A DNA stretch of 64,000 nt from an uncultured Gemmatimonadales bacterium (lineage in GTDB: Bacteria > Gemmatimonadota > Gemmatimonadetes > Gemmatimonadales > GWC2-71-9): positions 236,643 to 300,642 of the forward strand of contig CAVRRH010000007.1 of the NCBI GenBank assembly GCA_963723565.1. The letters are read 5' to 3'. Of this stretch, positions 5,411 to 64,000 are shown in pieces. Numbering within the stretch: the stretch's first letter is position 1; every line of letters starts with the position of its first letter. A program made the position numbers and the translations under genes. Below the pieces are notes generated by a model. The model did not search any database and was not told the DNA's origin. It saw nothing but the letters and a program-made list of their open reading frames with translations.

Positions 5411-5479
5411 GGTAGTCGTCAGTCACCAGTCGCAGTCGACTGCTCGACCATGTGACTGATGACTTGCGACTCGCGACTC
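5411..5479. repeat. inverted array of heptamer units (NNNAGTC x4 then GACTNNN x4) filling the glnA-amtB gap
   Basis: Left arm GGTAGTCGTCAGTCACCAGTCGCAGTCG (5411-5438) and right arm GTGACTGATGACTTGCGACTCGCGACTC (5452-5479). AGTC/GACT recur every 6-7 nt in mirror orientation. The array starts 2 nt after the glnA stop. Confidence 0.6.
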
Positions 5480-5508
5480 CGAGCCGTCAACCTATAAGGA
5501 GCAATGCC

Positions 5509-6850
5509 GTGACGATCTTACCCTTGCTGCTCGCCGTGCAGGACGCCGCACCTCCGCCGACCATCGTTCCGGCCGATACGGCCTGGATGCTGATCTCGAC
5601 CGCGCTGGTCCTGCTCATGACCCCCGCGCTCGCCTTCTTTTACGGTGGCCTGGTGCGCAACAAGAACTCGCTCAACACCATGATGATGAGCTTCGTGGCG
5701 CTGGGCGTCGTCGGGATAACCTGGGCCATTGCGGCGTACAGCCTCGCCTTTAGCGAGGGCGGCCCGCTGCTCGGCGGCCTGGCCAACCTCGGACTCAATG
5801 GGGTAGGCACCGAGGCCAAGGGCACCATTCCGCACGTGCTCTTCATGGCCTACCAGGCCACCTTCGCCATCATCACCGCCGCGCTCATCTCGGGCGCCGT
5901 GGTCGAGCGGATGCGGTTCGGGCCTTACGTCGTCTTTATCGCCCTTTGGACCCTGTTTGTCTACGCCCCCGTGGCCCACTGGGTCTGGGGCGGCGGCTGG
6001 CTCATGACTCGCGGCGTGCTCGACTTCGCCGGCGGCACTGTGGTGCACATCAACGCCGGTGTGTCGGCCCTGGTCGCGGCGCTGGTTTTGGGCTCCCGGA
6101 AGGACTACGGGCGCCAGGCGGTGCTGCCGCACAACGTTCCTTTCACTTTGCTGGGCGCGGGATTGCTCTGGTTTGGTTGGTTCGGCTTCAACGGGGGCAG
6201 CGCGCTCGCAGCGAACGAGCTCGCCGGCCTCGCCTTCACCAACACCTTCCTGGCCCCGATGGGAACGCTGGTGGTGTGGACGCTGCTGGACTACTTCCGG
6301 ACCGGTCGGGCCACCGCCGTCGGTGCGGCCACTGGGATCGTGGTCGGGCTGGTGGCTATCACCCCGGCGGCGGGCTTCGTAAGCCCGGCGAGCGCCCTCA
6401 TGCTTGGGCGCCGTGGCGGCATTGCCGAGCTACTTCGTCATCGCGCTCCGCTCCCGCACCCGGATCGACGACTCGCTCGACGTCTTCGCCGGCCACGGGG
6501 TAGGTGGACTCACCGGCGCGCTGCTCACCGGCGTGCTGGCGCAGAAGCTCTGGAACCCAGCAGGCAACGACGGTCTGCTGTACGGCAACCCCGGCCAGCT
6601 CGGGGTCCAGGCGCTCGGCTGCCTCAGCGCGGCTCTCTACGCCGCGATCATGACGTTCGTGATCCTGAAGGTGCTGGCTCTGGTGATGTCGCTCCGCACG
6701 GTGCCCCGCGTCGAGGGCGTCGGCATGGACCTGAGCCAGCACGGCGAGGAAGCCTACGCCAGCGGCGAAGGCTCGATCCTGGTGCATCCCGAGGCGGCGC
6801 TCGTTCCCGAGCCGCTGCCCGCGTTTACTCCACAAGTCGCGTCGAGGTAG
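5509..6850 (+). CDS. amtB: ammonium transporter (Amt family; frameshifted as sequenced)
   Basis: GTG 5509 lies 6 nt after AAGGAG. The Amt signature regions (AFFYGGLVR.., DFAGGTVVHINAG.., FGWFGFNGGSA) are in ORF 5452..6915. The C-terminal part (DDSLDVFAGHGVGGLTGALLTG) is in ORF 6404..6850. The frames rejoin by removing one G at 6406-6408. Confidence 0.9.
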
Positions 6851-6855
6851 TGGAA

Positions 6856-6956
6856 GGGCTATTGGCTATGGGCTGTGGCGCTATGGGCTGCAACGGGGAC
6901 CATGCCCATCCATAGGCGCAGCGGGTCCAAGCGGCGTAGCCCATAGCCCATAGCCC
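6856..6956. repeat. palindrome with tandem-heptamer arms (GGGCTAT-type units) between amtB and glnK
   Basis: Left arm GGGCTATTGGCTATGGGCTGTGGCGCTATGGGCTG (6856-6890); right arm GCGTAGCCCATAGCCCATAGCCC (6934-6956). The arms are near reverse complements. It starts 6 nt after the amtB stop. Confidence 0.7.
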
Positions 6957-6983
6957 TGATCATTTCTTAGGAGATCGAAGATC

Positions 6984-7346: not shown

Positions 7347-7521
7347 GGGGACGGCGGTAAGCGCGGTACGGTTCGTAGCATTCTCGTCATCCCGAACGTA
7401 GTGAGGGATCTCAAACCTTTCGGGTCTGAGATCCTTCGCTTCGCTCAGGATGACAGCGCACACCCTGCCTCCCGTCTTTCCCGTCCTTCCCTCCTTCCGG
7501 TCCTTCCCGTCCTTCCCGTAC
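7345..7521. repeat. composite repeat: G-rich arm, GTCATCCCGAACG..CGCTCAGGATGAC core palindrome, C/T-rich tandem arm
   Basis: Core halves at 7386-7412 and 7428-7454 are inverted copies. The right arm, 7465-7521, is made of CCGTCCTTCC-like units. Translated, the core gives the SEAKDL and HPERSEGS peptides seen in spurious ORFs 6960..7523 and 7411..8481. Confidence 0.7.
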
Positions 7522-7530
7522 ATTCCACTG

Positions 7531-9212
7531 ATGGCCCAACAAACTCAGGAGCAGCGCCATCACCGAGGGCGTCCAGCGCGCCCCGAATCGCGCGATGCTC
7601 CGCGCCGTCGGCTTCGGCGACGGCGACTTCGGCAAGCCGATCGTCGGCATCGCGAATGCGCACAGCACCATCACGCCGTGCAATGCCGGACTCGACGTGC
7701 TCGCGCGTCGGGCCGAGGCCGCGGTGCGCGAGGCCGGCGGCGCATGCCGCAGATCTTCGGCACGATCACCGTGAGCGACGGCATCTCGATGGGCACCGAG
7801 GGGATGAAGTACTCGCTGGTGTCCCGCGAGGTCATCGCGGACTCCATCGAGACGGCCTGCGGGGCGCAGAGCATGGACGGCGTGCTCGCCGTCGGCGGCT
7901 GCGACAAGAACATGCCCGGTGCCATGATCGCGATCGCGCGGATGAACATCCCGGCGGTCTTCGTCTACGGCGGCACGATCAAGCCGGGCCACTACGACGG
8001 GCGCGACCTCACGGTCGTGAGCGTCTTCGAGGCGGTGGGCCAGCACAGCGCCGGCAAGATCGATGACGGCGGAGCTGCTCGAGGTCGAGCGCAGGGCCTG
8101 CCCCGGGCAGGGCTCGTGCGGCGGCATGTTCACCGCCAACACGATGTCGTCGGTGTTCGAGGCGATGGGGATGAGCCTGCCCGTATCCTCCACCATGGCC
8201 GCCGAGGACGCGGAGAAGGCCGAGAGCGCGGCGCAGTCGGCGCAGGCGCTGGTCGAGGCGATGCGCCGCGGAATCTTGCCGCGCCAGATCCTGACGCGCA
8301 AGGCGTTCGAGAACGGGATCGCGGTGGCCATGGCGCTCGGCGGCTCGACCAATGCGGTGCTGCACCTGCTCGCGATCGCGCACGCCGCGGGCGTGCCGCT
8401 CGAGCTCGACGATTTCGAGACGATTCGCGCCCGCGTGCCGGTGCTCTGCGACCTCAAGCCATCGGGGCGGTACGTCGCCACCGATCTGCACCGCGGCGGG
8501 CGGCGTCCCCCAGGTCATGAAGATGCTGCTGGACGCACGGGCTGCTGCACGGCGACGCGCTCACCGTCACCGGGGAGACCGTCGCGGAGGAGCTGCCGGA
8601 CGTGCCCGCCGAGCCCCGGCCGGATCAGGACGTGATCCGGCCCTGGGAGCGGCCGCTGTATGCCCAGGGCCACCTCGCGATCCTGCGCGGCAACCTGGCG
8701 CCCGAGGGCGCGGTCGCAAAGATCACCGGCGTGAAGAGCCCGGCGATGACCGGCCCGGCCCGCGTCTTCGACTCGGAAGAGAGCCTGCCTCGACGCCATC
8801 CTCGCCGGCCGCATCCGCGCCGGCGACGTCATCGTGATCCGCTACGAGGGGCCGAAGGGCGGGCCGGGCATGCGCGAGATGCTCGCGCCGACCTCGGCGA
8901 TCATCGGCGCCGGACTGGGCGACTCGGTCGGCCTGATCACCGACGGCCGCTTCTCGGGCGGCACCTACGGCATGGTCGTGGGGCACGTTGCGCCCGAGGC
9001 GGCGGTGGGCGGACCGATCGCGCTGGTGCGAGGAGGGCGACCGCATCACGATCGACGCGGAGCGGCGCCTGCTGCAGCTGGACGTCCCGGACGACGGAGC
9101 TGGCCCGGCGGCGCGCCGCGTGGAAAGCCCCGAAGCCCCGCGCTACACCGCGGGCGTGCTTCACAAGTACGCCAAGCTGGTCTCCAGCGCGAGTCTGGGC
9201 GCCGTCACCGAC

Positions 9213-10307: not shown

Positions 10308-10914
10308 GACTTCGCTCCGCTCGGGCAAGGCGGCTGGCGCTCGAAGGCGGCGATGCGGCGGTTCGTCCAGCAGCGTTTGTCCGATCTCATCCAGGCCGCG
10401 CAGCAGCATCTCCCGCCGGTACTCCTCGACCTGAACTGGCCCGGAAGCCTCCGCCATCGCTCACCGCTCGCTGCGTCCAGGTCGATAGTCATTTCGTAGC
10501 CCCGCGTTGCGGCGCAGCGCTCGAAACAGCTCGGCCACCTCTGACCTCGGTCAGGACCACCGGCAGCAACCCGTTCTGGCAACAGTTGGCGTAGAAGATG
10601 TCGGCGAAGGACGGCGCGATGATGGCGCGGAAACCGAAATCCGCGAGCGCCCAGGGCGCGTGCTCGCGGGATGAGCCGCAACCAAAGTTCGCGCCGGTGA
10701 GCAGAATCGTTGCGCCCTGCGACTCGGCTCGATTCAGCTCGAACTCGGGGTTCAGAGTACCGTCGCTTCGATACCGCCAATCGTGGAACAGAAACGCTCC
10801 GAAGCCGGTGCGCTCGATCCGCTTCAGGAACTGCTTCGGAATGATCTGGTCGGTGTCGACGTTGGCTCGTCGAAGCGCGGCGACTCGTCCAGTGTGCGAA
10901 ACAAAGGGCTGCAT
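10304..10914 (-). CDS. leuD: 3-isopropylmalate dehydratase small subunit (about 3 frameshifts as sequenced)
   Basis: [39 protein letters not shown].. is in ORF 10489..10926. The continuation (..[11 protein letters not shown].., ..[21 protein letters not shown].., ..IAAFERQ..) lies in two other frames. Confidence 0.88.
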
Positions 10915-11016
10915 ATGCTCCCTCATTGTTATGCATGCGCGGAGGAGAGCGACGACGAAAGCAACTTTAAGTGGTCGTCTATAACCTTATGTGTTGCTGG
11001 GTGTTACAGAGCACGA

Positions 11017-12490
11017 CTAAGGTACCATCTCAGTATGCATAGCGGTGTCAAACGCTTCAGCCTGAGCTGTTGAGCTGCTCATAAACGCTCGCACGTCTAC
11101 CAGACATCCGGCAATCGCCGCTGCAGCCGCCATCGCAGGACTCATCAAGTGCGTGCGTCCTCCCCTTCCCTGCCGACCCTCGAAGTTCCGGTTCGATGTG
11201 GAGGCGCAGCGCTCACCCGGACCGAGCACATCCTCGTTCATCCCCAGGCACATCGAGCATCCGGGATTGCGCCATTCAAACCCTGCTTCGGTGAAGACGC
11301 GGTCCAATCCTTCGCGCTCAGCTGCAGCCTTGACCTGGCGCGAGCCAGGCACGACCATCGCTCGCACCCCGCTCGCCACTCTTCGTCCTCGCGCGACCTG
11401 AGCGGCCTCGCGCAGGTCCTCGATTCGCGCATTGGTGCATGAGCCGAGAAATACCCGATCTACCTTGAGCCCCTCGAGCGGAGTCCCGGGCCGAAGGTCC
11501 ATGTACTCCAGCGCCCGTCGCCACGAGTGACGGTCGGCCTCCGACTTGGCCTCGTCGGGGTCCGGAACCCATCCTGTAATATCGGTCGTCATTCCAGGGC
11601 TGGTGCCCCAGGTGACCTGAGGCTGCACGGCGCTCGCATCGAGCGTGACGTGTTGGTCGAAGTAGGCGTCCGGGTCGCTCCGTAGCGCGCTCCAGGCACT
11701 CACCGGCACGCTGCCATTCCCTGCCCGCTGGAGCCTCGCGCCGCCCCGCCAGGTAAGCCAGCGTCTTGCCGTCCGGCGCGATCATGCCGGCCCGGGCCCC
11801 AGCCTCAATGGACATGTTGCAGACCGTCATGCGGCCTTCCATCGACATCGCGCGGATGGCCTGGCCGGTGTACTCGATCACGTGTCCCGAGGCGCCCGCG
11901 GTGCCGATCTGGCGAATCAAAGCCAGGATCAGATCCTTGGGCGACACGCCGAGTTGAGGAAGTTCAGAGAAACAAACCTCCATAGTGCGCGGAGGGGTCT
12001 GCACCACACACTGCGTGGCAAGCACGTGCTCGACCTCACTCGTTCCGATACCGAACGCAAGTGCCCCGAACGCCCCGTGGGTCGAGGTGTGGGAGTCGCC
12101 GCAGACGATGGTCATGCCCGGCTGGGTGAGCCCCAGCTCCGGGCCGATCACGTGGACGATTCCCTGCTCGGGCGAATCGAGGTTGAAGAGCCGGATCCCG
12201 AACTCACGGGCGTTCCGTACCAGCGCCGCCACCTGCCGTGCCGACAGCTCGTCCGCGATTGGCAGCCGCCGGTCGCCGGTCGAAACGTTGTGGTCCACGG
12301 TGGCGACGGTGAGCTCGGGGCGACGAACGCGCCGGCCGCTCAAACGCAGCCCCTCGAATGCCTGGGGTGAAGTGACTTCGTGCACCAGGTGCAGGTCCAC
12401 GTAGAGCAGCGCCGGTCCCCCTGGGACCTGGCTGACGACGTGCGCATCCCAGACTTTCTCGAAGAGCGTGCGAGCAGTCATCGTTGCCAT
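11017..12490 (-). CDS. leuC: 3-isopropylmalate dehydratase large subunit (one frameshift near 11710-11740)
   Basis: The N-terminal 260 aa ([19 protein letters not shown].., [26 protein letters not shown]) are in ORF 11318..12652. The C-terminal part (..[12 protein letters not shown].., [18 protein letters not shown]) is in ORF 11017..11709. Confidence 0.9.
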
Positions 12491-12685
12491 AGCCAAGGGG
12501 AGCCGCAGGTGAACGCAAGAACAGATCGGATCGTTCCACTGCCGATAACAGCTTCCCCGTGCCTGGACAGGGGCCTTGGTGTTGTTATTCAACTGCACAC
12601 CTCCGAGTCCAGGCCAGTAAACGGAGACTTTGGTGAACGAGGGGCGATCCATCCTGTTCCTGTGTTCCTTCCGCGGCTTCTTTTC

Positions 12686-13801
12686 TTATCGAGGGAGCGG
12701 GTGAGCTGGGCGGCGCGGGCGCCGCTCCGATTTCGCCTTGCTATCGGCAGTCCTCTCGCTGCCCTGCTGTCCCGCTGTCCCGCTGTCCCGCTTCTTCCCC
12801 TCCTCCGACCACGGCATCATCGCCCGCAGCTCGGCGCCCACTCGCTCGATCTCATGGTCCTTGTCCGCCTGGCGGGCCCGCTCGAAGTTGGGGCGCCCCG
12901 CCCGGTTCTCCTCCAGCCATTCCCGGGCGAACGACCCGTCCTGGATGGCCTCCAGGATCCGCTGCATCTCGGCTCGGGTCTCATCGGTGATGACCCGGGG
13001 ACCCCGCGTGTAGTCACCGTACTCCGCCGTATCGCTGATCGAGTAGCGCATGAAGCCGAGCCCGCCGCGATACATCAGGTCAACGATGAGCTTGAGCTCG
13101 TGCAGACACTCGAAGTAGGCCATCTCCGGCCGGTACCCCGCCTTGGTCAGGGTCTCGAAGCCGGCCTTGACCAGGGCGGTCACACCGCCGCACAGCACCG
13201 CTTGCTCCCCGAAGAGATCGGTCTCGGTCTCCTCCCGGAACGAGGTCTCGATGACACCCGCGCGGGTGCAGCCGATTCCCGAGGCATAAGCGAGCGCGTT
13301 GGCGAGCGCCTGCCCGCTCGCGTCCTGATGCACCGCCACCAGCCCGGGTACGCCCCGGCCGGCCTCGAACTCGCTCCGCACCAGGTGGCCGGGCGACTTC
13401 GGCGCCACCATGGTGACGTCGACTCCCGCGGGGGGCACGATCTCGCCGTAGTGAATGTTGAAGCCGTGGGCGAACATCAGCGTGTTGCCCGGACGGAGGC
13501 CCTGGGCCACGCCTGCCTCGTATATGGCACGGCCATCCTGATCCGGCACCAGCATCATGATGACGTCGGCTTGCTCCGCGGCTTCGGCCACCGGGCGTAC
13601 ATCGAGCCCCGCAGCCTGAGCCCGGTCCCATGACGCGCCCCCGCGGCGCAGACCCACGATCACCTTGGCACCGCTCTCCCGGAGGTTGAGGGCGTGAGCG
13701 TGCCCCTGGCTGCCGTAGCCGATGATGGCAATGGTCCGGCCGGCCAGGAGGCTGGGGTCGGCGTCGGCATTGTAGTACACCCGCACCGGTGCGTTCGTCA
13801 T
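12686..13801 (-). CDS. ilvC: ketol-acid reductoisomerase (class I) with about 38-aa repeat-encoded C-terminal tail
   Basis: Intact ORF with [21 protein letters not shown] Rossmann motif and the KARI core up to ..ELRAMMPW. The last ~38 codons run through the tandem octamer array at 12759-12800. Confidence 0.92.
12759..12800. repeat. single-arm tandem octamer array (CTGTCCCG x3-4) at the 3' end of the ilvC ORF
   Basis: CTGCCCTG CTGTCCCG CTGTCCCG CTGTCCCG CTTCTTCCCC, read directly from the sequence. Confidence 0.7.
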
Positions 13802-14304
13802 GTCACTGTCTCTGATTGAAGGTTGTTCGCCGTGCCGAGCGCGATCGTGCCGCTGCGGGCCACCTCGACCACGTCGAATCGCTCGAGGGCGCGGAGGCAG
13901 GAGAGAACGAAGGCTTCGGACCCGCTGAGCTCGACGATCAGGCCGTCGGTGGAGTCATCCAGCACCGTGGCGTTGTAGAGCTGGACCACATCCAGCAGCT
14001 CGGCGTAGCGATGATGCGGAGCCCGAACCTTCACCAGGGCGAGCTCGCGGGTCACCCCGTCCAGGGTAGGAAACGCGATGGCGGCGCGGACGCCGATCAT
14101 CTTCTGCAGATGCTGCACGGCTCGCTCCGCGGTGGCAATGTCCGACTGCATCATGATAGTCAACCTCGAAAGGCCGGGGGTACCTGTGGGGCCGATGGCC
14201 AGGCTGCGTACGGGCAGATTGCGCCGCCGGATGAGTCCGACCGCGCGGTTCAGAGTGATCAATCGGTCCTCCAGCAGGACCGACACCGCTTGGGCTTCGC
14301 TCAT
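13798..14304 (-). CDS. ilvN: acetolactate synthase small (regulatory) subunit
   Basis: Intact 168-aa ORF with an ACT-domain-like N-terminus ([32 protein letters not shown]). ATGA-type overlaps with ilvB and ilvC. Confidence 0.88.
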
Positions 14305-16020
14305 GCGGGGACCAGGGGCGTTGCCGCGACCCCCTCGATGGGCTCCGAAAGCGACCCACCGGGCGGAATCATGGGAAACACATTTGCCTCCTGTTCGATC
14401 ATGAATTCCACCAGGACCGGGCCAGGCTCGGCCGCGGCCTCGGCGACGGTGCGTTTCAGCTGATCGGTCGACTCGACCCGGTGTCCGGCGATCCCATAGG
14501 CCTCGGCGAGCTTGACGTAGTTCGGACTCCAGATCGGCGTGGCCGAATAGCGCTTACCGTGAAAGAACTGTTGCCACTGCCGCACCATCCCCAGGTACCC
14601 GTTGTTGAAGACCGCCATCTTCACCGGGATTCCCTCCTGCACCATGGTGGCGATCTCTTGCATGTTCATCTGGAATCCTCCGTCGCCCGAGATTGCCCAG
14701 ACCGGCTCACCCGGACGAGCCAGAGCGACGCCCATCGCCGCCGGTACCGCAAAGCCCATCGTTCCCAGTCCGCCGGAAGTGATGTGGCTGTTGGGCCGCT
14801 GATACCGAAACAGCTTGGCGACCCACATCTGATGCTGGCCGACATCGGACACGATGGTGGAGCGGCCGTCACTGGCGTCGCTGATGGCGTCCAGGATTGC
14901 CTGGGGCGAGAGGCCGGCGCGGAAGCTCTCCTCCCGAGGGCGCACAAAACTGGCAATCTCGCGCCGCCACGCGTCGCAGTTGCGGGGCGCTACCGCGGGA
15001 AGCAGGGAGCAGAGCACTTCCCGCGCGTCGCCTATGAGTCCCACGACCGCCGGCACGTTCTTCCCGATTTCCGAGGCATCGAGCTCGACGTGAATGAGCT
15101 TTGCCCCCCGGGCGAAGCCGGCGAGGTTTCCGGTTACCCGGTCGTCAAACCTGAGACCCAGGCCGATGATGAGGTCGGACTGCTGGATGGCCCGGTTGAC
15201 GTGAACCTCGCCATGCATGCCGGGCATTCCCAGGTGGAGCGGGTGCGACTCGGGAAAGGCACTGATGCCGAGCAGGGTGGTGATCACCGGAATGCCGGTG
15301 CGCTCCGCCAGCACCCGGAGCTCGTGATACGCGCCGGAGAGCACCACCCCGTGACCGGCCATGATGAGGGGCCGCTCGGCGGCGGCGATGAGCCGGGCAG
15401 CCTCGGCGAGAGCGGCGGTAAGGCGGTAGGGCGGTAGGGCGGTAGAGCGAGAACCTACCGCCTTTCCGACCTTCCGCCTTTCCGCCTTGCCACTCCGCCT
15501 TCTGATTCTGCACATCCTTGGGAATATCCAGCAGCACCGGTCCGGGTCTCCCTTCCTGGGCAACATGGAAGGCCTCGCGTACCGCGTCCTGAATCTCCTC
15601 GACGTCCTCGATCAGGCGACTGTGCTTGGTGATCGGCTGAGTGATCCCGATGATGTCGGTTTCCTGGAAGGCGTCCCGCCCCATCATCGCGCGGGCTACC
15701 TGGCCGGTGATCGCCACCACCGGCGTGCTGTCCATGTTGGCCGTGGCGAGCCCGGTGACGAGGTTGGTCGCTCCCGGACCCGAGGTGGCCACGCACACGC
15801 CGGCGCGGCCGGACGCGCGGGCGTACCCGTCCGCCGCGTGCGCCGCCGCTTGCTCGTGCCGTACGAGCACGTGCCGGAGCCCCGGGAACTCGGGCAGCGC
15901 GTGGTAGAATGGCATGATGGCGCCACCCGGGTAACCGAAGAGGACGTCGACACCCTCGTCGAGCAGGGCACGGCAGAGGATCTGTGAGCCGGTCAGGATT
16001 CCGTCATGGACGTGCCCCAT
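14301..16020 (-). CDS. ilvB: acetolactate synthase large subunit (one net frameshift inside an intragenic repeat)
   Basis: The N-terminal Pyr domain ([50 protein letters not shown]) is in ORF 15145..16068. The central and PP domains (..[29 protein letters not shown]..) are in ORF 14301..15566. The frames switch within 15414-15502. Confidence 0.9.
15414..15502. repeat. imperfect hairpin of GGCGGTAG-type octamer repeats inside the ilvB coding sequence
   Basis: GGCGGTAAGGCGGTAGGGCGGTAGGGCGGTAG (15414-15445), a 9-nt loop, then CTACCGCCTTTCCGACCTTCCGCCTTTCCGCC... (15455-15502). It is translated as ..[20 protein letters not shown].. in the linker after DIPKDVQ. Confidence 0.75.
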
Positions 16021-16077
16021 GCGCCAGGCGTAAGTCGCCAGTTCGAAGCGGAGGACGGCCCCGATCACGACCCAAGA

Positions 16078-16103
16078 CTGCTGACCGCTGACCGCTCACG
16101 ACT
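16078..16103. repeat. single-arm tandem heptamer array (GCTGACC/GCTCACG) in the leuA-ilvB spacer
   Basis: CTGCTGACCGCTGACCGCTCACGAC. The minus-strand reading GTGAGCGGTCAGCGGTCAGC is related to the GGTGAGC units at 47127. Confidence 0.55.
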
Positions 16104-17754: not shown

Positions 17755-17850
17755 TCATGTTGCTCGTCTAGGCACGCCGCGGACCCCTCGCTCACCGATG
17801 AGGACGGTAAGCAGGACGCTAAGGAGGACGACGACGAGGACGAGCTGCAT
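17755..17850 (-). CDS. putative branched-chain amino acid operon leader peptide (31 aa, MQLVLVVVLLSVLLTVLIGERGVRGVPRRAT)
   Basis: ATG at 17850, TGA at 17757-17755. Fourteen of residues 3-18 are Leu, Val or Ile. The ORF ends 29 nt before the terminator stem, and its codons 22-25 form the antiterminator strand. Confidence 0.6.
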   Translation of the reverse strand: MQLVLVVVLLSVLLTVLIGERGVRGVPRRAT

Positions 17851-26888: not shown

Positions 26889-26911
26889 AGGGCGTTCGAA
26901 GGGCCGTCCTG

Positions 26912-45317: not shown

Positions 45318-45373
45318 GGGTCTCCTGGACCGGCTTGGGGTTGCGAACATGCATTGCAGCCCGCTACTGAGTA

Positions 45374-47266: not shown

Positions 47267-47271
47267 TTTAT

Positions 47272-47907: not shown

Positions 47908-48049
47908 GCGGGAAAGCGGGGAAGCAGGGAAGCGGGGAAGGATGCGTTGGTGCGTCACGCGCCGCCGCCGTACCAGCTCTCTTATCATCCCCTACCTTTT
48001 AAGGGCAGACTTCCCTGCCCTGCTTCCCCGCTTCCCCGCTTCCCCGCTG
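47906..48049. repeat. palindrome with (GGGGAAGC)x4 arms between queE and the HD-domain gene
   Basis: Left arm GAGCGGGAAAGCGGGGAAGCAGGGAAGCGGGGAAGG (47906-47941); right arm CTTCCCTGCCCTGCTTCCCCGCTTCCCCGCTTCCCCGCTG (48010-48049). It begins within the queE stop codon and ends 5 nt before the next ATG. Confidence 0.85.
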
Positions 48050-50183: not shown

Positions 50184-50364
50184 GCTGGTTGCTCGCCGGG
50201 ACCGAGTAGCCTTAGCAGTTTTAGTCACCCAGGCTGCAAAGCCGAAATCCCTGGGGCCCCGAAGGGCTATGTCCATGTGCAACTGGCGTGAATATACCTA
50301 ATCAGGTGGATCAGCACAACCTCTCGCCGCTCCCCTCGGCCACCCCGTTCTTGTATTATAGGAC

Positions 50365-51699
50365 ATGGGTTTAACCCCTGCCCCATCCTTAGCCACACTA
50401 CCTAGTGCCTTTGCAGCCGCTTGCCGGCTCTCCCGTACCGACGGAGAGTTGTTCGAGCGCTGCCGGGTTGCTCTGGTCCGCCGCTTTCAGAGTGAGCGGA
50501 TCTGGTTCAGCCTGGTTTCTTCGGCGGAGTCGATCCCCCGGGTAGGCCCGGCAGAGGGATTCGAGACCGCGGTCGAGGTGGCCCGGCTGGCAAGCGGGGA
50601 GACCGAGGTGGTCATCCACGTCGATCCCCTGGTGGCAACGGAGATGCGCGCCGTTGCGATGTCTCTGGCCCTGGGCCTCAGTGTCGTCGTCGAGCTCCGC
50701 AGCATCCTCCTCGAGCGCCAGGCTGCTCTGGACGATGCGGTGTTCCAACTCAGAGCCCTGCGCCAGGTCGCCCGACTCCTCTCTTCGGTTCACTCCACCG
50801 AGGAGACCGAGCAGCTGATTCTCGATTTCATGGCGGAGGTCTTCTTCGCCTGGTGGGCCTGCCTGTACCGCCCCGAAGGTGACGTCTATGCTCCTAGCGT
50901 CTTCCGTTCGCTGAACGACCGGCTGCGACCGGCGCCGATCGAGCGCTCAGCACTGGATCAGGCGCTTCCGCCGGGAAGCGCCGCCACTGGGGCGGACGAT
51001 GTGGGTTTGGCGGAGCTGGTGGGCCCCGGGGCCGAGCTGGTGGTGCCGCTGGACGCCGGCGCTGAACGGATGGCGGTACTGGTGCTCGGCTCGCGGATCA
51101 GCGACAAGCTCTACGGGCGAGCGGAGTCCGAGCTGGCCGGCACGCTCTCCTTTGCCGCGGCCATCGCCCTCAAGAACTCCGAGCTGGTGGAGCAGCTTCA
51201 CAGCGCGGCGACGACGGATGAGCTCACCGGGCTCTGCAACCGTCGCGCGCTGGAGGAGCGTCTCGCCGCCGAGATCTCCCGTAGCCTGCGCCATCAGCTG
51301 CACACCAGCGTTCTCCTGCTCGACCTCGACCGCTTCAAGGTGGTCAACGACACCATGGGCCACGCCGCTGGAGATCGGCTGCTGGTTCAAGTCGGCCAGG
51401 TCCTGCGGAAGCAGTGCCGCGCCCTGGATGTGGTGGGTCGTCTCGGAGGGGACGAGTTTCTGGTAATCCTTCCGATGACCAAGCCGGCCGAAGCCAGGGT
51501 TTTCGTGGCTCGGGTCCAGGCTAGCCTTCGGGAGATAGAGAAGACGCACCCGGAATTCGGGGCCTGCACCTTGAGTATGGGAATCGCCGAGTCGCCGCAC
51601 CACGGGACGACGGTCAGCAGCGTTTTGGCCGCGGCGGACAACGCGCTGTACCGTGCCAAGCGTGGCGGCAGGAACACGGTCGAGGTTGCGGAGAGCTAG
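50365..51699 (+). CDS. diguanylate cyclase (GAF-like N-terminal region plus GGDEF domain)
   Basis: DELTGLCNRRAL, DLDRFKVVND and an active-site GGDEF with an RALD I-site motif five residues upstream. Confidence 0.88.
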   Translation: MGLTPAPSLATLPSAFAAACRLSRTDGELFERCRVALVRRFQSERIWFSLVSSAESIPRVGPAEGFETAVEVARLASGETEVVIHVDPLVATEMRAVAMSLALGLSVVVELRSILLERQAALDDAVFQLRALRQVARLLSSVHSTEETEQLILDFMAEVFFAWWACLYRPEGDVYAPSVFRSLNDRLRPAPIERSALDQALPPGSAATGADDVGLAELVGPGAELVVPLDAGAERMAVLVLGSRISDKLYGRAESELAGTLSFAAAIALKNSELVEQLHSAATTDELTGLCNRRALEERLAAEISRSLRHQLHTSVLLLDLDRFKVVNDTMGHAAGDRLLVQVGQVLRKQCRALDVVGRLGGDEFLVILPMTKPAEARVFVARVQASLREIEKTHPEFGACTLSMGIAESPHHGTTVSSVLAAADNALYRAKRGGRNTVEVAES

Positions 51700-54005: not shown

Positions 54006-54208
54006 ACGCGGGCGCCATACAGATTTGTCCCCGCGATAGGGCCCCCAAGTTGAAGTCTGATCGACCGCATCAGTGGCAATCAGAGACCCGGGTGGATCGC
54101 CCAGCGGGTCTTTTCATTTTTTATGACGCGGGACAGGCCTGCGCTCATAAAAACTCGGCCTCCGGACCTTCCGGAGCCGACGGAGTCAAACAAACAGGAG
54201 TAGGCGCA

Positions 54209-54421
54209 ATGGCTCGCACCATCGGCACGGTGAAATGGTTCAACGACGCGAAGGGTTTCGGTTTCATCACCCCGGAAAACGGGGACAAGGACTGTTTTGT
54301 CCACCACACCGCCATCAAGGCAGAGGGCTTTCGCAGCCTCGCCGAGGGCGACCGGGTTGAGTTCGACATCGTGCAGGGTGCAAAAGGCCCCGCCGCCGAG
54401 AACGTCACCAAGGTCAAGTAG
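54209..54421 (+). CDS. cspA: cold-shock protein (CspA family)
   Basis: [36 protein letters not shown] with RNP1/RNP2 motifs. CAGGAG lies 8 nt upstream. Confidence 0.93.
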
Positions 54422-54460
54422 GCTCGCAACACGTTGCGGGCCTACGGTCTAGAAACAAGA

Positions 54461-54490
54461 GGGCCGCTCAGCAGAGCGGCCCTTTTGTTA
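54461..54490 (+). terminator. intrinsic terminator after cspA
   Basis: GGGCCGCTC (54461-54469), loop AGCA, GAGCGGCCC (54474-54482), then TTTTGTTA. Confidence 0.75.
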
Positions 54491-54557
54491 TGGAGAGAAC
54501 CTTCGTTATTGAGAGATCCCTCGCTGCGCTCGGGATGGCCTCACGCTTCGCGTGAGG

Positions 54558-56683: not shown

Positions 56684-56913
56684 CCACGGATGAACACGGA
56701 AAAGCACGGATCACTCCGCTGTGTCGAGACCTTCCTTATCCTCACCAATCCAAGGCAATCTGTTTGACACCACACCCACGGGGTTCATGTGAGGACAAGG
56801 AGAATGTCGAATTCGCCAGGTGTGCCGTTGCACAAGTATGAACTGCACCCGGTGACGCGAACGGAGCGCCTCGATTCCCGGAACAATCCGTGCTTTTCCG
56901 TGTTCATCCGTGG
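56684..56913. repeat. 230-bp MITE-like element with perfect 28-bp terminal inverted repeats
   Basis: CCACGGATGAACACGGAAAAGCACGGAT (56684-56711) is the exact reverse complement of ATCCGTGCTTTTCCGTGTTCATCCGTGG (56886-56913). Each TIR is itself three CACGGA units at 10-nt spacing. No obvious target-site duplication. Confidence 0.7.
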
Positions 56914-56965
56914 CAAGTTTTTCCAGGTTCCGAGGCTCGCGATCCCGAGCGGCGGGAGAGCCCGT

Positions 56966-58885
56966 TCACGAGCTAGTCTCGCTCCGTCCCTGCCGGTGAT
57001 ACAGATACGCCAACAGCAGGAAGACCAGCCCCAGAATGAAAACAGAGCCCACCCGGTAGAGCGCATCGAGGGAAGAAAGGTCGAACATGAGGACCTTGAC
57101 CACAGCGAGCCCCGCGACGGCCAGGCCGGCGATCCGCGCCGGCTTCAGGGATCGGCGGAAGCCGACCCCAACCAGGGCAGCCGCGAATATCAGCCACCAG
57201 GCGCTGACGGCCAATCCCGCGGCGAGGCTCGCCTCCTGCGAGGACAGCGTCTTCAGTTCGAAGTAGCGCCCAATCTCCCCGGTGACGCCGAACAGCACCA
57301 TGGCGCCTCCCAGGGCCCAGAGGGCGCCTCGAACCAGGGGGGCGGTGCCCGTGCCGGCTACCGACCTCCAGAGCCCTGCGGCGAGCACCACCATTACAGC
57401 CGCCGTTCCCCACAAGGCCAGTGGCCACGACCCCACGAACGCCACATCGGCGGCTGAACGCTGTAGTAACGCGGCGGTAAGCAGCTGGTCCAACGACGCC
57501 CAGAGCGTCGCCAAGGCGTACCAGCGGCCGTCGTCACGCTTCAGCACATGGTCGAGCGCCGCCCAGAGCAGTGTGAGGGCGAGCAATGCCCATACCCTTT
57601 CCACCCCATCCCAGTGCTGCCACGCCGCCATGCCGAGCGCAGCTGCGCCTACCAATGCGAACACCGACCTCGGCCGGTAATAGCCGGCAAACAGGTAAGG
57701 AATCGCGATGATGAGGGCCGGCAGTCCGGGCCTCTGGTCGAACCAGACCGGTGCGAGATGGTGAACAGCCCATCCCAGGAGGACCGGGGTGAGGAAAAAG
57801 TAGAACGCTTCGCCTATCGACCAGCCGGGAACCCCGGCTGCAGGTGACAGGTGCAGCGGCAGGATCTGGGTTGCACGCATCGCATACCACCAGACCGGAG
57901 CGGCCAGCAGGAGCCCCCCGACAAGGATGGCCCACGGATGAGTGAGGTGGTCGCTCGCCGCGGCAAGGAACGCCCAGCCTCCTCCGAAGGACAGGAACCT
58001 GGTCTCCCACCAACGTTCCCGCAGGCCGACATGGATCCCAATCGTCCCACCGACGACCCCGTAGAGCAGAAGGCCCCACGGGGGGCCGCGCTCGGCGGCA
58101 CCAGTATACGCGACACCGAAGTAGCTCAGCGCTACGACGAACATGGTGAGCCGCCAGCGTCTTCGTGCGGCCACCAGGCCCATCCCGGCAGCCATCGAAG
58201 CGAGATAGAGCAGGAGCAATCCGGCGTTGGCCTGATCGCGACCCAGGAGGAGCGGCGCGAAGAACGCGCCCAGGGCGGCGGTGGTTCCCAGGGCTTCGAC
58301 GTTGATGGCGTACGCGATCATCGCCAGCGCAACGGAGACCAGTGCGAGCCCGACAAGGCCGGTTGTCGGAGGCAGCACCCCGTACAACCGTGCGGCGGCC
58401 CAGACACTGAGGTAGATGATCGCGGCCCCACAGCCGACCAGAGCGGCGCCGTACGTCCGGTAGCGTGGCTGGAGCCGCCAGCCCACGGCTCCCACCGCGA
58501 TCCCGCTCAAGGCACCTCCGATGCACCGCATGATGGGTGAGATCCAGTCGCGATCGAACGAGAGACGGAGCAGATAGCCCGCCGCCAGAATCAGCGCGAC
58601 CACCCCCACGGCCAGAAGCACTCGCTGGCCGATCCACTGCTCGGAAGACAGTGCGGAAGCGGGGAGGCGGGGAAGCGGGGAGGCTCGTGTGGGAGAAGGG
58701 GTAGAGTTGGCCTTGGTAGTCTGGGTTTCTGTCACCGCAGGCCGCTTCCCCGCTTCCCCACCTATCCGCGTACCCGCCTCCTTCCCCGCTTCCCCGCCTC
58801 CCTGCTTCCCCGCGAGCGCCCCCAGCAGCGCCTCAAGCCGGGCCACCCGCGCCTCCAGGCGCTCGATTCGGTCTCCCTCGTTCAT
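56966..58885 (-). CDS. DUF2339-like polytopic membrane protein
   Basis: N-terminal coiled segment (DRIERLEARVARLEALL), a low-complexity linker, then about 18 hydrophobic helices. Confidence 0.6.
   Translation of the reverse strand: MNEGDRIERLEARVARLEALLGALAGKQGGGEAGKEAGTRIGGEAGKRPAVTETQTTKANSTPSPTRASPLPRLPASALSSEQWIGQRVLLAVGVVALILAAGYLLRLSFDRDWISPIMRCIGGALSGIAVGAVGWRLQPRYRTYGAALVGCGAAIIYLSVWAAARLYGVLPPTTGLVGLALVSVALAMIAYAINVEALGTTAALGAFFAPLLLGRDQANAGLLLLYLASMAAGMGLVAARRRWRLTMFVVALSYFGVAYTGAAERGPPWGLLLYGVVGGTIGIHVGLRERWWETRFLSFGGGWAFLAAASDHLTHPWAILVGGLLLAAPVWWYAMRATQILPLHLSPAAGVPGWSIGEAFYFFLTPVLLGWAVHHLAPVWFDQRPGLPALIIAIPYLFAGYYRPRSVFALVGAAALGMAAWQHWDGVERVWALLALTLLWAALDHVLKRDDGRWYALATLWASLDQLLTAALLQRSAADVAFVGSWPLALWGTAAVMVVLAAGLWRSVAGTGTAPLVRGALWALGGAMVLFGVTGEIGRYFELKTLSSQEASLAAGLAVSAWWLIFAAALVGVGFRRSLKPARIAGLAVAGLAVVKVLMFDLSSLDALYRVGSVFILGLVFLLLAYLYHRQGRSETSS
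58653..58813. repeat. GGGGAAGC/GGGGAGGC-armed palindrome translated in frame inside the DUF2339-like gene
   Basis: Left arm GCGGAAGCGGGGAGGCGGGGAAGCGGGGAGG (58653-58683). Right-arm pieces CCGCTTCCCCGCTTCCCC (58742-58759) and CCTCCTTCCCCGCTTCCCCGCCTCCCTGCTTCCCCGC (58777-58813). It encodes ..AGKQGGGEAGKEAGTRIGGEAGKRPAVTETQ..SPLPRLPAS.. Confidence 0.75.
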
Positions 58886-61772: not shown

Positions 61773-62833
61773 TCGACCGCTCGGGGAAAGAGGTGGATTC
61801 CGCCGCCCGCGCGCCGGCTGGGCATGATGCCCACCCGCTCGCCCGCCCTGACGGACCGGGGCGGCCCGATCACCTCGAGCGACGCTCCACCCTCAGTGAC
61901 GACCGTAAAGAGACTGGCGGGGCCGGTGAAGCGACGCTCGGTGACAGTCCCGATGAGGGCACCGGGCGTAAGCGGCATGAGCCGGAGGGCCTCAGGACGC
62001 ACCACCATGAGCGCGGGCCCACGAGGCGCTTCGCTCAGGTCGGTGAGGTCCCACTCGACGCCTTCAACCACCACCAGCAACCCTCGCTCGCCGGGCCCGA
62101 GCACGACGATTCCGATGCTGCTCGACCGGCCGACGAACTCAGCGACGAATTCGTTCGCCGGCGACGCGTACAAATCCTCGGGCGTGCCAACCTGCTCCAG
62201 GCGCCCTCCGCGAAGCACGGCTACCCGGTCGCCCAGATCGAAGGCCTCGTCCTGCTCATGGGTCACCAGCACCGTGGTGATTCCAACCCGCCGTATCAAC
62301 TCCCGGATCTCACGCCGGGTACGTTCACGTAACGAGGGGTCGAGATTCGACAGCGGTTCGTCGAGAAGGAGCACCCGGGGCTCCGGGGCCAGCGCCCGCG
62401 CCAGCGCCACTCGTTGCTGCTGCCCTCCAGAGAGCTGGCTGATGCGGCGGCGCTCGTACCCCACCAGGTCCACCAGCGTGAGCGCGCGGGCTACCCGCCG
62501 CTGGAGCTCTTCCCCACTCACCCCGAGCGACTCCAGCCCGAAAGCAATGTTTTCACCCACGTCCAGGTGGGGAAAGAGAGCGTAGTGCTGGAAGACCATG
62601 CCGAACCGCCGGGCCACCGGGTCTACTCCGGTCACGTCTTCGCCTTCGACCAGAACGCGCCCCTGATCCGGCTCCTCGAAGCCGGCCAGCAGCCGAAGCG
62701 TCGTGGTTTTCCCGCTTCCGCTCGGCCCCAGCAGGGCGAGCATCTCCCCCCGCTCGATGGAGAGCGAGAGCCCGTCAACAGCCACGGTGCCGTCGAAGCG
62801 TTTGGTGAGGGAGTCGAGGTGGAGGAAGGTCAC
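61769..62833 (-). CDS. ABC transporter ATP-binding protein (FbpC/PotA-like)
   Basis: GTG start. GPSGSGKTT, LSGGQQQRVALARAL, LLLDEP, and a C-terminal TOBE-like domain. Confidence 0.88.
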   Translation of the reverse strand: MTFLHLDSLTKRFDGTVAVDGLSLSIERGEMLALLGPSGSGKTTTLRLLAGFEEPDQGRVLVEGEDVTGVDPVARRFGMVFQHYALFPHLDVGENIAFGLESLGVSGEELQRRVARALTLVDLVGYERRRISQLSGGQQQRVALARALAPEPRVLLLDEPLSNLDPSLRERTRREIRELIRRVGITTVLVTHEQDEAFDLGDRVAVLRGGRLEQVGTPEDLYASPANEFVAEFVGRSSSIGIVVLGPGERGLLVVVEGVEWDLTDLSEAPRGPALMVVRPEALRLMPLTPGALIGTVTERRFTGPASLFTVVTEGGASLEVIGPPRSVRAGERVGIMPSRRAGGGIHLFPRAVE

Positions 62834-62845
62834 GGAGTGATAAGA

Positions 62846-62974
62846 CTATGGCTATTGGCTATTGGCTTACGCTGTGTTGGTTCTGCATTCTCCTCATCCT
62901 GAGCGCAGCGAAGGACCTCCTCTGGTGGCCTCCGAATCTGGTGGCGATTTCCGATCTCAAGTGAGCCAATGGCC
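62846..62974. repeat. composite repeat: CTATTGG tandem arm, single CCTCATCCTGAGCGCAGCGAAGGACCTCC core, short GAGCCAATGGCC arm
   Basis: CTATGGCTATTGGCTATTGGCT (62846-62867), core at 62892-62920, GTGAGCCAATGGCC (62961-62974). It fills the gap between the binding-protein and ATPase genes. Confidence 0.65.
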
Positions 62975-62975
62975 T

Positions 62976-64000
62976 TCATTCTTTTCCCGTCCCCCGTACA
63001 TGCTGGTCCCAGTAGCGCATCCACTCCGGTCCCCTAGTGGAGAGTAGACCCCAATCCATGTCGCTGACGACCATCTCCCGCTCCACCTCGGCCACCCAAT
63101 AGGGAACCGAATCGGCGGGGAGGTCACCGCGTGCCGGCAAGCGGAAGACCTCGCGCGCGGCCAGCAGCTGGGCTTCCTTGCTGCCCACGAAGTCGATAAA
63201 GGCTCGCGCCGCTTCGGGGTGTCGGCTGCCCCGCACCAGTCCAATGGCATCGTCGATGACCACGGTGCCGCTTCGGGGAAAAACGTAGCCCAGCGGCATC
63301 CCCTTTGCCGCGCTGATGAGGATATCCTGAAGGTCCCAGAGGCTCACCAATCCTTCCTGCCGGGCCAGCTTCTCGTACAGCAGGGCTGGGTTGATCGTGT
63401 AAGTCTTGGTCTGCCCGTCGAGGCGGCGAAGCCAGGCCATTCCGGAAGCGGTATCGCCGGTCTGGCGCAGACTGCGGACGAGGATCAGACCCCAGATGGC
63501 GCGCATCGTTCCGCTGGCCATGGGGTCGCGGATGATCACCTTGTTCTTCCAGCGGGGCTCCAGGATCTCGTCCCAGTCTCGAGGGGCCTCGGCCCGTGAC
63601 ACCGCCCGGCTGTTGAAGGCTATGACCGCCGGAGTCCGGTACACCGGGAAGTAGAGGTCGTTGGGCCCGATGCCTCGTTCGCTCACATGCTCGGCCCACG
63701 CGGGACGGTAGGGTGCCAGCAGCGAGTCCCGGATTCCGCGGTCGAAGATCGGGGCTGGTCCACCGAACCACACATCGGCCTGCGGGTTGACCCGCTCGAA
63801 GCGTACCCGATCGAGGATTTCCTGCGAACCCATGTCCAGCCAGCGCACGTCGATGTCGGGTCGCCGCTGTTCGAAAGCCCGCTCCAGCAGGGTCAGCTGA
63901 TCGCGACCATGTGGAGAGTAGAGTACAATGGGCGTTCGATCGTCGGGTGAACAGGCGGGAAGGACGGAAAGAGCGGGAAGGACGGGAAGGAAAGCAAGAC
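62976..64000 (-). CDS. ABC transporter periplasmic substrate-binding lipoprotein (iron(III)/thiamine type); 5' end outside window
   Basis: ORF 62976..63848 extends in frame to the window edge (..LAFLPVLPALSVLPAC SPDDRTPIVLYSPHGRDQLTLLERAFEQRRPDIDVRWLDMG..). The lipobox Cys codon is at 63953-63951. The signal-peptide codons coincide with a GGGAAGGAC tandem array. Confidence 0.8.
   Translation of the reverse strand, partial: LAFLPVLPALSVLPACSPDDRTPIVLYSPHGRDQLTLLERAFEQRRPDIDVRWLDMGSQEILDRVRFERVNPQADVWFGGPAPIFDRGIRDSLLAPYRPAWAEHVSERGIGPNDLYFPVYRTPAVIAFNSRAVSRAEAPRDWDEILEPRWKNKVIIRDPMASGTMRAIWGLILVRSLRQTGDTASGMAWLRRLDGQTKTYTINPALLYEKLARQEGLVSLWDLQDILISAAKGMPLGYVFPRSGTVVIDDAIGLVRGSRHPEAARAFIDFVGSKEAQLLAAREVFRLPARGDLPADSVPYWVAEVEREMVVSDMDWGLLSTRGPEWMRYWDQHVRGTGKE

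Follow-up and report, generated by a model that had tools for sequence, protein, structure and literature searches.

Paired, 'convergent' arrays of the heptamer (GGGAATC)n have been described in Xanthomonas campestris and X. axonopodis (Rehm et al. 2015, PMC4692102). They occupy 70-75 loci per genome, with a G-rich array closely followed by its complement and about four units as the modal number; most are intergenic, on average 28 nt 3' of the preceding open reading frame (ORF), and few lie between divergent genes (PMC4692102). Their length and sequence vary between related species at equivalent gene pairs, a single unit is used per genome, and this unit was read as a G-quadruplex motif (PMC4692102). 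This is the closest known system to the elements reported here, which share its geometry, placement and polarity (tandem 7 nt units, close inverted pairs, G-rich arm first). Our elements are tandem-repeat hairpins found in a 64 kb stretch of DNA (hereafter the window; G+C 65%) from an uncultured bacterium of the order Gemmatimonadales, a member of the Gemmatimonadota, which to our knowledge is a phylum with almost no genetics. Covariation of the two arms is analysed here and was not in the Xanthomonas paper (PMC4692102). Unlike the single G-quadruplex-capable unit of Xanthomonas, at least 8-10 families of 7-10 nt units coexist in these 64 kb, and many of them cannot form a quadruplex (there is no G3 tract in GTGAGAA, GGTGAGC, AGTC-type or CACGGATGAA units); in addition, families are replaced at fixed sites and arrays reside in frame in essential genes. 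The observation of such arrays and of the hairpins that they form is confirmed.

Several other repeat classes share some of these properties. Drosophila foldback (FB) transposons have long inverted arms made of short tandem sub-repeats, with variable arm length and variable or unrelated centres; they are eukaryotic and kilobase-sized, generate target duplications and depend on a transposase for mobility, and we know of no bacterial counterpart. Rickettsia palindromic elements (RPEs) are hairpin repeats translated as extra peptide segments in conserved proteins, but they are dispersed copies of a 100-150 nt consensus rather than tandem-repeat arms evolving in place. The REP and BIME sequences of E. 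coli have a plausible role in mRNA stability. REP, BIME and REPIN elements of E. coli and Pseudomonas, which have cognate RAYT (Y1) transposases (PMC2817692, PMC3116915, PMC3733652), resemble our elements as abundant hairpin repeats past stop codons and between cistrons that avoid promoters, and in their genome-specific 'master' variants and long vertical persistence. However, a REP is an imperfect palindrome of 20-40 nt with near-identical copies and a GTAG or CGTC tag, whereas the elements of the window have arms of tandem 7-10-mers that are not self-complementary alone, unique centres and several families. GTAG occurs in GGCGGTAG units and CGTC in CCGTCC units, and neither tag is found in the GCGGGGAA, GTGAGAA, GGTGAGC and GGCTATT families; a separate REP-like motif, GTCAYCCYGAGCG..CGAAGGRTC, is nested within some of our elements. 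The STRR heptamers of cyanobacteria and the TAACTGA repeats of Beggiatoaceae are intergenic tandem heptamers near start codons, some of them within ORFs, and spacers poor in Shine-Dalgarno (SD) sequences were noted nearby (MacGregor 2015, PMC4679880). Those are direct arrays with one unit per genome and one indirect repeat among 170 sets, so they do not form hairpins (PMC4679880). In the literature, of which our coverage was incomplete, there was no description of such elements in Gemmatimonadota or Acidobacteriota and nothing for the literal unit strings. Many coexisting families replaced at fixed sites, genome-specific variants across loci and in-frame residence in essential genes appear to be new features.

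Arrays were counted with Tandem Repeats Finder (TRF; merged calls, period 6-12, at least 2.8 copies), and chance expectation was taken from 50 dinucleotide-preserving shuffles of the window. We detected 26 merged short tandem arrays, compared with a mean of 1.6 and a maximum of 5 in the shuffles. Strict two-armed pairs numbered seven in the window and zero in each of the 50 shuffles. Inverted repeats were also sought by windowed local alignment, since a blastn self-search missed known cases. By eye, approximately 19 elements were recognized in the 64 kb, or about one long hairpin per 3 kb, covering some 3 kb (roughly 4-5% of the window). An earlier reading of this stretch (hereafter the original prediction) had listed arrays at a series of positions, and TRF found arrays at essentially all of them. 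One exception was a weak case on the minus strand at 34718-34740, immediately past the stop codon of an M28 peptidase gene, where about two CGGTACGG units fall below the TRF threshold; the list was also incomplete, as the two-armed element at 12502-12677 was absent from it.

A typical element consists of a G- or purine-rich arm of three to six units of 7-10 nt, a centre of 5 to ~175 nt, and a reverse-complement arm. The arms are 74-96% complementary over 25-42 nt, and two-armed loci fold into long hairpins with stems of 25-40 bp, mostly at z-scores of -4 to -15. The expectation that the second arm is the reverse complement of the first was borne out at 6855/6930, 15414/15454, 31173/31299, 37629/37769, 47125/47235, 47907/48014, 56684/56879 and 58643/58744. 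Weak folds were seen at 12690 (z -2.4), 45374 (z -1.6) and 62846 (z -2.8), which are degenerate or atypical; partner arms are degenerate at 12759 and 62846, and the array at 16078 has three copies and a degenerate partner. Unit variants often occur in mirrored order across the two arms. In element L (56684-56913; spacer between a DUF2339 gene and an M3 peptidase gene, both on the minus strand; 160 nt centre; z -9.4), the arms are mirrored series of three unlike 10-mers, CACGGATGAA CACGGAAAAG CACGGATCAC, and in element H (37628-37809; z -15.4), which has arms (GTGAGAA)6 and (TTCTCAC)5, the outermost GTAAGA units are mirrored.

In an all-against-all comparison the centres were unrelated between loci, except for a nested GTCAYCC motif. 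This dispersed REP-like motif, GTCAYCCYGAGCG.AGCGAAGGRTC, is present as one or two inverted copies in five element centres. It occurs at six places in the window (7386-7454, 26909-27015, 31225-31255, 37693-37761, 54515-54545 on the minus strand, and 62894-62920), five of which lie between arms. It often forms an inverted doublet, which in element H reads GTCACCC...GGGTGAC, and was also detected in L001, L007, L081, L083, L161, L164, L166 and L167 (L-numbers are labels of compared DNA stretches from other genomes). No Rfam family corresponds to the motif, and the single literal instance searched, CCTGAGCGAAGCGAAGG, had no match in the literature. An Rfam scan gave no match at gathering thresholds; when permissive E-values were allowed, the long hairpins matched eukaryotic microRNA-precursor models only, and these matches were considered spurious. 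No tRNA or tmRNA was found in the window.

The gene order of the window is that of several other Gemmatimonadales genomes over 10-20 kb, and its QueE is 89% identical to that of one Gemmatimonadales metagenome-assembled genome. Several core genes are split over two or more frames by frameshifts: glnA (3861-5409), amtB (5509-6850), ilvD (7531-9210), leuC (~11000-12481), ilvB (14301-16007), gltB (18225-22833) and an acyl-CoA dehydrogenase gene (25026-27013). Because these genes are whole in the syntenic relatives L164, L166 and L167, and because L169, a relative from an ENA long-read study, is broken up by frameshifts in the same manner, the frameshifts are probably indel errors of a long-read assembly. 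Such noise could invite the view that the arrays themselves are assembly or sequencing artefacts. However, identical sites show the same architecture in independent JGI, ENA and NCBI assemblies, including contigs with intact genes, and contigs of four other samples align gap-free to L170 with 0-1 mismatch where they overlap it, which makes an artefact practically inconceivable.

The arrays of the window fall into about 8-10 unit families, several of which are used at two to five loci. The proposal that unit sequences are mostly locus-specific did not hold: GCGGGGAA occurs at 47907 and 58655, GGCGGTAN at 7347, 15414, 27043, 31179 and 34718, GGGAAGGAC at 7470 and 63956, GGCTATN at 6856 and 62849, and a CACGGATGAA-like unit at 56684 and 12502. 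Several G-rich arms contain at least four G3 tracts (47907, 58655 and 20755), and the modal copy number is about four, as in the Xanthomonas report; both features would suit G-quadruplex or i-motif elements, or iterons bound by a protein. However, GTGAGAA, GGTGAGC, NNNAGTC, CACGGATGAA and GGCTATT units cannot form G-tetrads, and one binding protein cannot account for 8-10 unrelated families, so that explanations of this kind are hardly credible. Intrastrand-triplex motifs (PMC4666352) were rejected as well, since the arms are purine-rich rather than homopurine and there is no third segment.

Comparison of orthologous sites showed that an array site persists between genomes while its unit turns over, with both arms changing jointly. 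Element K (47907-48048; z -7.9), between queE and an HD-domain gene, is built of (AGCGGGGA)4 and (CCCCGCTT)4, opens on the last nucleotide of the queE TGA and stops 6 nt short of the following ATG. Orthologous arrays are present in ten relatives; eleven Gemmatimonadales genomes have a two-armed array at this junction, with GCGGGGAA, GCGGGGCA or GACGGGAAG as the unit and a 3' arm that is always the matching complement, and in a more distant group the junction is 14 nt long or holds a plain short hairpin. Upstream of it, element J (47125-47269; (GGTGAGC GGTAAGC)2 plus complement; z -8.7) joins queC to queE; the queC stop TGA (47145-47147) lies within its first arm (47125-47159), and 2 nt separate its second arm from the queE ATG. 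Among relatives this site is found as GGTRAGC, GGTACGGC, GAGGTRA or GTCGCAG (nine copies) arrays, as the REP-like motif alone, or as overlapping genes, and copy number ranges from three to nine units.

A similar picture was obtained for element C (7347-7521; z -5.7), in the spacer between glnB and ilvD. It comprises a G-rich arm (7347-7372), an inverted GTCAYCCYGAGCG...CGAAGGRTC doublet (7386-7454) and a (CCGTCCTTC)n arm (7463-7521), follows the glnB TAA without a gap and stops 11 nt short of the ilvD ATG at 7531. This architecture is kept in five relatives with other arm families: six genomes share boundaries and the REP-like centre, and their arms belong to four families (GGGACGG, GCGGGGNA, GCGGGTAG and GGCGGTAC), the family being always that of both arms. 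Across related genomes, then, the 3' arm matches the 5' arm at both queE-HD and glnB-ilvD, and since both arms switch together at orthologous sites and also in the IlvB linkers described below, the original proposal that pairing is kept by compensatory or concerted change was upheld. Its corollary, that this excludes the spread of a fixed sequence, was not, because a small set of families recurs at non-orthologous loci within and between genomes.

Thus, GGCTATN arrays lie upstream of amtB in L166 and downstream of it in the window, L164 and L167, and GGGTCTAGA is found between leuA and ilvB in L162 and after cspA in L093. In the GCGGGG[A/C]A family, each genome has one variant at all of its loci (five genomes, 13 loci): A in the window and in the L002/L164 genome, and C in L003, L083 and L166. 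The genome-specific variant holds even where the same site has the other variant in another genome. In addition, same-family arms taken from different loci are nearly as similar as partner arms. Genome-wide variants and this near-equal similarity show that some information moves between loci; judged from these sequence patterns, the transfer could be by conversion, by transposition or through a common template.

These observations are also what non-autonomous foldback or REPIN-like mobile elements might leave, if a transposase encoded elsewhere recognized family-specific arms and inserted or replaced elements. Recurrence of a few families at non-orthologous sites, genome-specific variants at all loci of a family, a dispersed REP-like motif nested in centres, and element-free relatives with tight or overlapping junctions (the queC/queE ATGA overlap of L002, as well as L028 and L084) are all in line with mobility. 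However, elements of the same family have unrelated centres, target-site duplications are not evident, each locus has its own arm length and number of units, and one-armed arrays exist. Sites persist between genomes with flanking proteins of only 70-90% identity, the orthologous centre at glnB-ilvD is retained when its arm family changes, and a Pfam scan of the ORFs of the window revealed no transposase or RAYT within it. Overall, we consider mobile elements an unlikely, if serious, explanation.

Five arrays of the window are not intergenic, and translation of arrays had not been recognized in the original prediction: those in ilvB (15414-15488), the ilvC tail (12757-12792), gltB (20755-20814), the DUF2339 gene (58643-58813) and the end of queC. 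Relatives hold arrays at the corresponding coding sites, in frame. Element E (15414-15488, minus strand; (GGCGGTAG)n and (CCGCCTTT)n; z -6.9) forms the linker between the N-terminal and middle domains of the acetolactate synthase IlvB. A hypervariable linker of 34-51 residues is found in every one of more than 120 Gemmatimonadales IlvB homologues, which are 81-92% identical outside it. These linkers read like translated arrays, with a first half rich in G, R, D, E and T (e.g. GGRADGRTGG) and a second half rich in P, S, R and A (e.g. ARPPVRPS). At the DNA level, six relatives have a G-rich tandem arm followed by a pairing C-rich arm, and one relative has the G-rich arm only. In 126 distinct linkers the class of the first half predicts that of the second (13/14, 13/16, 27/36 and 40/41), a descriptive association that carries no formal test, as classes were drawn by eye and the sequences are phylogenetically related. 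The covariation stems from codons that are reverse complements of each other in the DNA, and no protein-level reason for it is apparent. Linker family varies even inside clusters of at least 90% identity.

The other coding arrays have similar features. Element D (12693-12795, minus strand; z -2.4) lies in the 3' coding tail of ilvC, where a sense-strand (CGGGACAG)n array (12757-12792) is followed by a C-rich segment encoding the conserved IlvC C-terminus; the KARI_C match ends at residue 331 of 371. Among six relatives (L162 and L164-L168), the tail array is clear in four and degenerate or absent in two, and L168 has the tail with no evident array. The gltB array (20755-20814, plus strand) is a one-armed, G-rich (GGGCGGAN)n array in a surface-loop insertion of the glutamate synthase GltB, and in-frame 9-mer arrays occur at the corresponding point in L164, L166 and L167. 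Element M (58643-58813, minus strand; z -7.0) has GCGGGGAA and GCGGGGAG arms and encodes, in frame, residues 24-81 of the DUF2339 membrane protein, between an N-terminal coiled coil and the first Pfam-matched residue (86).

Outside coding sequence, elements sit between co-directional operon genes (glnA-amtB-glnB-ilvD, leuA-ilvB-ilvN-ilvC-leuC and queC-queE-HD) and also between convergent genes. A codon-by-codon check showed that the 5' arm begins 0-8 nt past the upstream stop codon in elements A, B, C, K, N and O, and that a stop codon lies within an arm in G, H and J. Between the 3' arm and the following start codon there are 2-29 nt, and the longer of these gaps hold a Shine-Dalgarno sequence. 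The placement from stop codon to start codon that had been proposed is upheld for the intergenic elements. Element A (5411-5479; glnA-amtB spacer; (NNNAGTC)n and (GACTNNN)n; z -5.2) starts 1 nt past the glnA TGA and is separated from the amtB GTG by 29 nt, which include AAGGAG, and its orthologues in L164, L167 and L168 are two-armed arrays of the GAGTC family. Element B (6855-6957; amtB-glnB spacer; (GGGCTAT)n and (ATAGCCC)n; z -6.5) starts 4 nt past the amtB TAG and stops 26 nt short of the glnB ATG; its unit family is found at the orthologous site in L164, L167 and L170, and L166 and L168 have no spacer there. Element O (12502-12677; ilvC-leuC spacer, minus-strand genes) has degenerate CACGGATGAA/CACAGGAA-like arms at 12645-12677 and 12502-12533, forms one unit family with element L, and has orthologous two-armed elements in L162, L164 and L165. 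In the leuA-ilvB spacer (16030-16100, minus strand), a short G-rich sense-strand array (GAGCGGTCAGCGGTCAGC, 16076-16096) has a degenerate partner, and clear two-armed RCGGTRA arrays are present in L163, L164, L165, L167 and L170.

Two elements separate convergent genes. Element G (31164-31333; z -4.2) comprises (GGAAGGCGGTACGGCG)n and its complement around a single GTCAYCC-like central motif, and its 3' arm encodes the last codons of a minus-strand gene of the DinB family. In element H, between gltA and speA, the stop codons of both genes are within the arms. Promoter-bearing or leader spacers (among them leuA|gltB, the region upstream of a GGDEF gene, and the cspA leader) are array-free and well conserved in relatives. 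The one atypical exception is the A-rich array at 45373 (element I, 45373-45470; z -1.6), a (AACACGAA)n array with a weak T-rich partner that is probably located in a divergent spacer and whose unit is kept in L001.

As G+C-rich hairpins 3' of genes, including convergent pairs, the elements might be lineage-specific intrinsic (Rho-independent) terminators that dispense with a U-tract. However, the sense strand shows no T-run beyond the 3' arm of A, C, G, H, J, K or O, and this lineage does use a canonical hairpin and T-run terminator after cspA (54454-54489), conserved in four relatives; it follows that the elements are not ordinary terminators. Most of them also lie within genes or inside conserved operons (glnA-amtB-glnB, leuA-ilvBNC-leuCDB and queC-queE), and a role as terminators is very improbable. 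In the minus-strand operons, a T-rich run is present on the plus (antisense) strand 3' of elements O (12678-12685), L (56914-56925) and N (62976-62987), and these runs might stop antisense transcription.

Polarity is a further common property. The original prediction placed the G- or purine-rich arm 5' in every clear case, and this is so at all two-armed loci of the window, with no example of the opposite class in it. In all DNA compared, the purine-rich arm is 5' in 32 of 37 two-armed arrays, including all Gemmatimonadales ones (one-sided binomial ~4e-6, for loci that are not independent). One-armed arrays, read on the sense strand, are G-rich past stop codons and within genes and C-rich before start codons, and the Xanthomonas report gives matching rules of placement and polarity (PMC4692102).

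A polarity set by transcription even in one-armed arrays, conserved presence at sites, stems that reach from a stop codon to 2-29 nt before the next start, and exclusion from divergent and promoter spacers might all be expected of selected RNA elements, which would couple the translation of adjoining cistrons, protect upstream mRNA from 3' exonucleases, provide RNase III sites or shield C-rich RNA from Rho, with selection keeping the arms complementary. However, related genomes lack elements at equivalent junctions, G.U pairs are not in excess on the sense strand, and such roles are unlikely for the hairpins within the ilvB and DUF2339 coding sequences. Selection alone also leaves unexplained why unrelated loci of a genome have variants in common. 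We therefore regard selected RNA elements as a doubtful explanation, about on a par with mobile elements.

Our preferred explanation, to which we assign a probability of about 0.5, is that these sequences are vertically inherited foldback microsatellites at fixed sites, maintained by slippage and templated copying. Replication slippage would make copy number drift, and loops of at least 4 nt would escape mismatch repair, which is less efficient on loops longer than 3 nt (PMC4060949). Non-reciprocal templated copying, either by intrastrand template switching on the hairpin or by short-patch conversion, would homogenize sequence, chiefly from one arm to its partner and at times from one locus to another of the same family. 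Such copying would keep the arms complementary and allow one family to overwrite another, and genome-specific variants together with family replacement at fixed sites suggest that copying between loci also occurs. Elements would survive only where the transcribed hairpin is harmless; the DNA that they occupy is transcribed but otherwise unconstrained (past stop codons, between cistrons, between convergent genes and in flexible protein linkers). The stem in the transcript would set the stop codon beside the next start, and coupling of cistrons could outlast an insertion of 100-230 nt. By analogy with REP and BIME sequences, the elements probably act on mRNA 3'-end stability or on coupling of adjacent cistrons. 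G-first polarity would arise most simply from selection on the transcript: a C-rich, G-poor arm that emerged first and unpaired would be a Rho loading site, and emergence of the G-rich arm first would avoid exposing it.

Several observations weigh against this explanation. The comparison covers ~300 kb of Gemmatimonadales DNA and no whole genome, and no slippage or conversion event was directly observed in it. L170 and L171, from two samples of one strain, differ by one single-nucleotide polymorphism and no indels over 12,958 nt that include several arrays, and L172 (96% identity) shows one substitution and no length change in the leuA-ilvB array. The near-identity of L170 and L171 means that turnover is slow and not microsatellite-like on short time scales. 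G.U pairs show no excess on the sense strand (57 vs 50), and selection at the RNA level is thus not demonstrated. All five arrays of opposite polarity (four of CTAGCTN and one of TCTTTGCG) are from Acidobacteria, and they also speak against an origin of polarity in Rho loading. Finally, concordance of families across a genome could equally reflect a trans-acting enzyme or transposition.

One version of a trans-acting origin is that the arms are written by a genome-encoded enzyme, perhaps with a nucleic-acid template, that adds or copies family-specific 7-10 nt repeats symmetrically at the two 3' ends of a hairpin or break. This would account for a G-rich 5' arm on both strands and for arms of like units, as well as for genome-specific variants and family replacement around an unchanged centre. 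If so, it would be a new kind of bacterial repeat-generating system that also diversifies linkers of essential enzymes; we consider it improbable.

If foldback microsatellites of this kind extend genome-wide, one self-complementary repeat class with neither a name nor an Rfam model would make up most operon spacers. It would provide a natural setting in which to ask how inverted repeats remain complementary, with dozens of independent loci per genome and the unit family as read-out, and would imply that hairpin maintenance at the DNA level can dictate protein sequence, as in the IlvB linker. Strict G-first polarity would be a simple rule that may report on Rho-dependent termination or translational coupling. 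In practical terms, the elements yield spurious ORF extensions and low-complexity 'domains', and are likely hot spots of long-read assembly error.

Additional known repeat types were considered and rejected. Miniature inverted-repeat transposable elements do not fit, as centres are not common to copies of one family: K and M, and B and N, have like arms and unlike centres. A TGAG/TGAG pair flanks element K; it varies among orthologues (TAAG/TGAG, TGAG/TGAC) and probably reflects stem extension. Integron attC sites are imperfect hairpins with RYYYAAC...GTTRRRY core sites behind the ORFs of mobile cassettes beside an integrase; they were dismissed because element ends lack the GTTRRRY core and the flanking genes are core operons syntenic across relatives. 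CRISPR arrays have direct repeats of 24-48 nt with unique spacers, whereas here units are of 7-10 nt and contiguous, and arms are inverted. Simple sequence repeats of phase-variable contingency loci are not supported, as no length change was seen across several arrays between L170 and L171 or in the leuA-ilvB array of L172. Mimicry of SD or anti-SD sequences by the arms was dropped, since most unit families are not SD-like.

Element F (26880-27066; z -4.1), upstream of queF, has a degenerate G-rich arm, an inverted GTCAYCC doublet (26909-27015) and a (CCGTACCG)n arm (27029-27064). Element N (62846-62975, minus strand; z -2.8), in the spacer between a solute-binding-protein gene and an ABC ATPase gene, has a (GGCTATT)n arm and a degenerate counterpart, together with one copy of the GTCATCCTGAGCG motif. 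The window closes with a (GGGAAGGAC)4 arm at its edge (63955-63991). This arm, C-rich on the sense strand, is located at or just upstream of the start of a minus-strand binding-protein gene, depending on the true start codon; its partner, if any, lies past base 64000.

Two-armed tandem-repeat hairpins were also observed beyond the Gemmatimonadota, in L010, L025, L029 and L047 (Acidobacteriota), L075 (Saprospiraceae) and L079 (Roseateles). Their units include AGGGATG, AAGTGAT, AGTCTGA, GACGGTT and CTAGCTN, the last of opposite polarity. Some of these look-alikes have T-runs and may act as terminators in their own hosts. Repeats of another kind were found within the window at 28059-28149, where a 33 nt tandem unit (2.8 copies, 81% matches) lies in an ORF with no Pfam match (27793-28638). 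Two strong hairpins are plain, i.e. non-tandem: 3859-3897 (CGATGCCCCTGCG...CGCAGGGGCATCG), at the start of the glnA ORF or slightly within it, and 27512-27560 (CCCGAGGCAATCCAGCGGG...CCCGCTGGATTGCTTCGGG), after queF, which resembles a GAAGCAATCC motif of L081 and L161.

Several array-free regions of the window have features of their own. In the 557 nt divergent spacer between leuA and gltB, a short minus-strand ORF upstream of leuA (17755-17850), MQLVLVVVLLSVLLTVLIGERGVRGVPRRAT, is conserved in L164 and L166 and looks like the Leu/Val/Ile-rich leader peptide of an ilv-leu attenuator; the 'arrays' called by TRF at 17801-17844 are codons of this ORF and are separate from the hairpin elements. Five relatives show very strong conservation of the intergenic region at 50183-50449, which precedes a GAF-GGDEF gene, in blocks such as CAAATCCCGGCTGAGC...GCCTTAGCAGTTTT...CACCCAGGCTGCAAAGCC.AAATCCCTGGGGCCCCGAAGGGCTATG and TATTATAGG.CATGGGTTTAACCCCT; the region has no Rfam match and may be an unannotated RNA or regulatory region. 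The cspA-like gene (54209-54421, in the region 54100-54490) has a conserved long 5' leader that scores 60.6 bits with the Rfam cspA thermoregulator model, compared with a gathering threshold of 78. The spacer between leuC and leuD (10900-11030) is an unusually A+T-rich segment of ~110 nt in an operon of otherwise 65% G+C; it is array-free and partly conserved (...GCATGCATAACAAT...) in L164 (14985-15110) and L167 (14823-14930).

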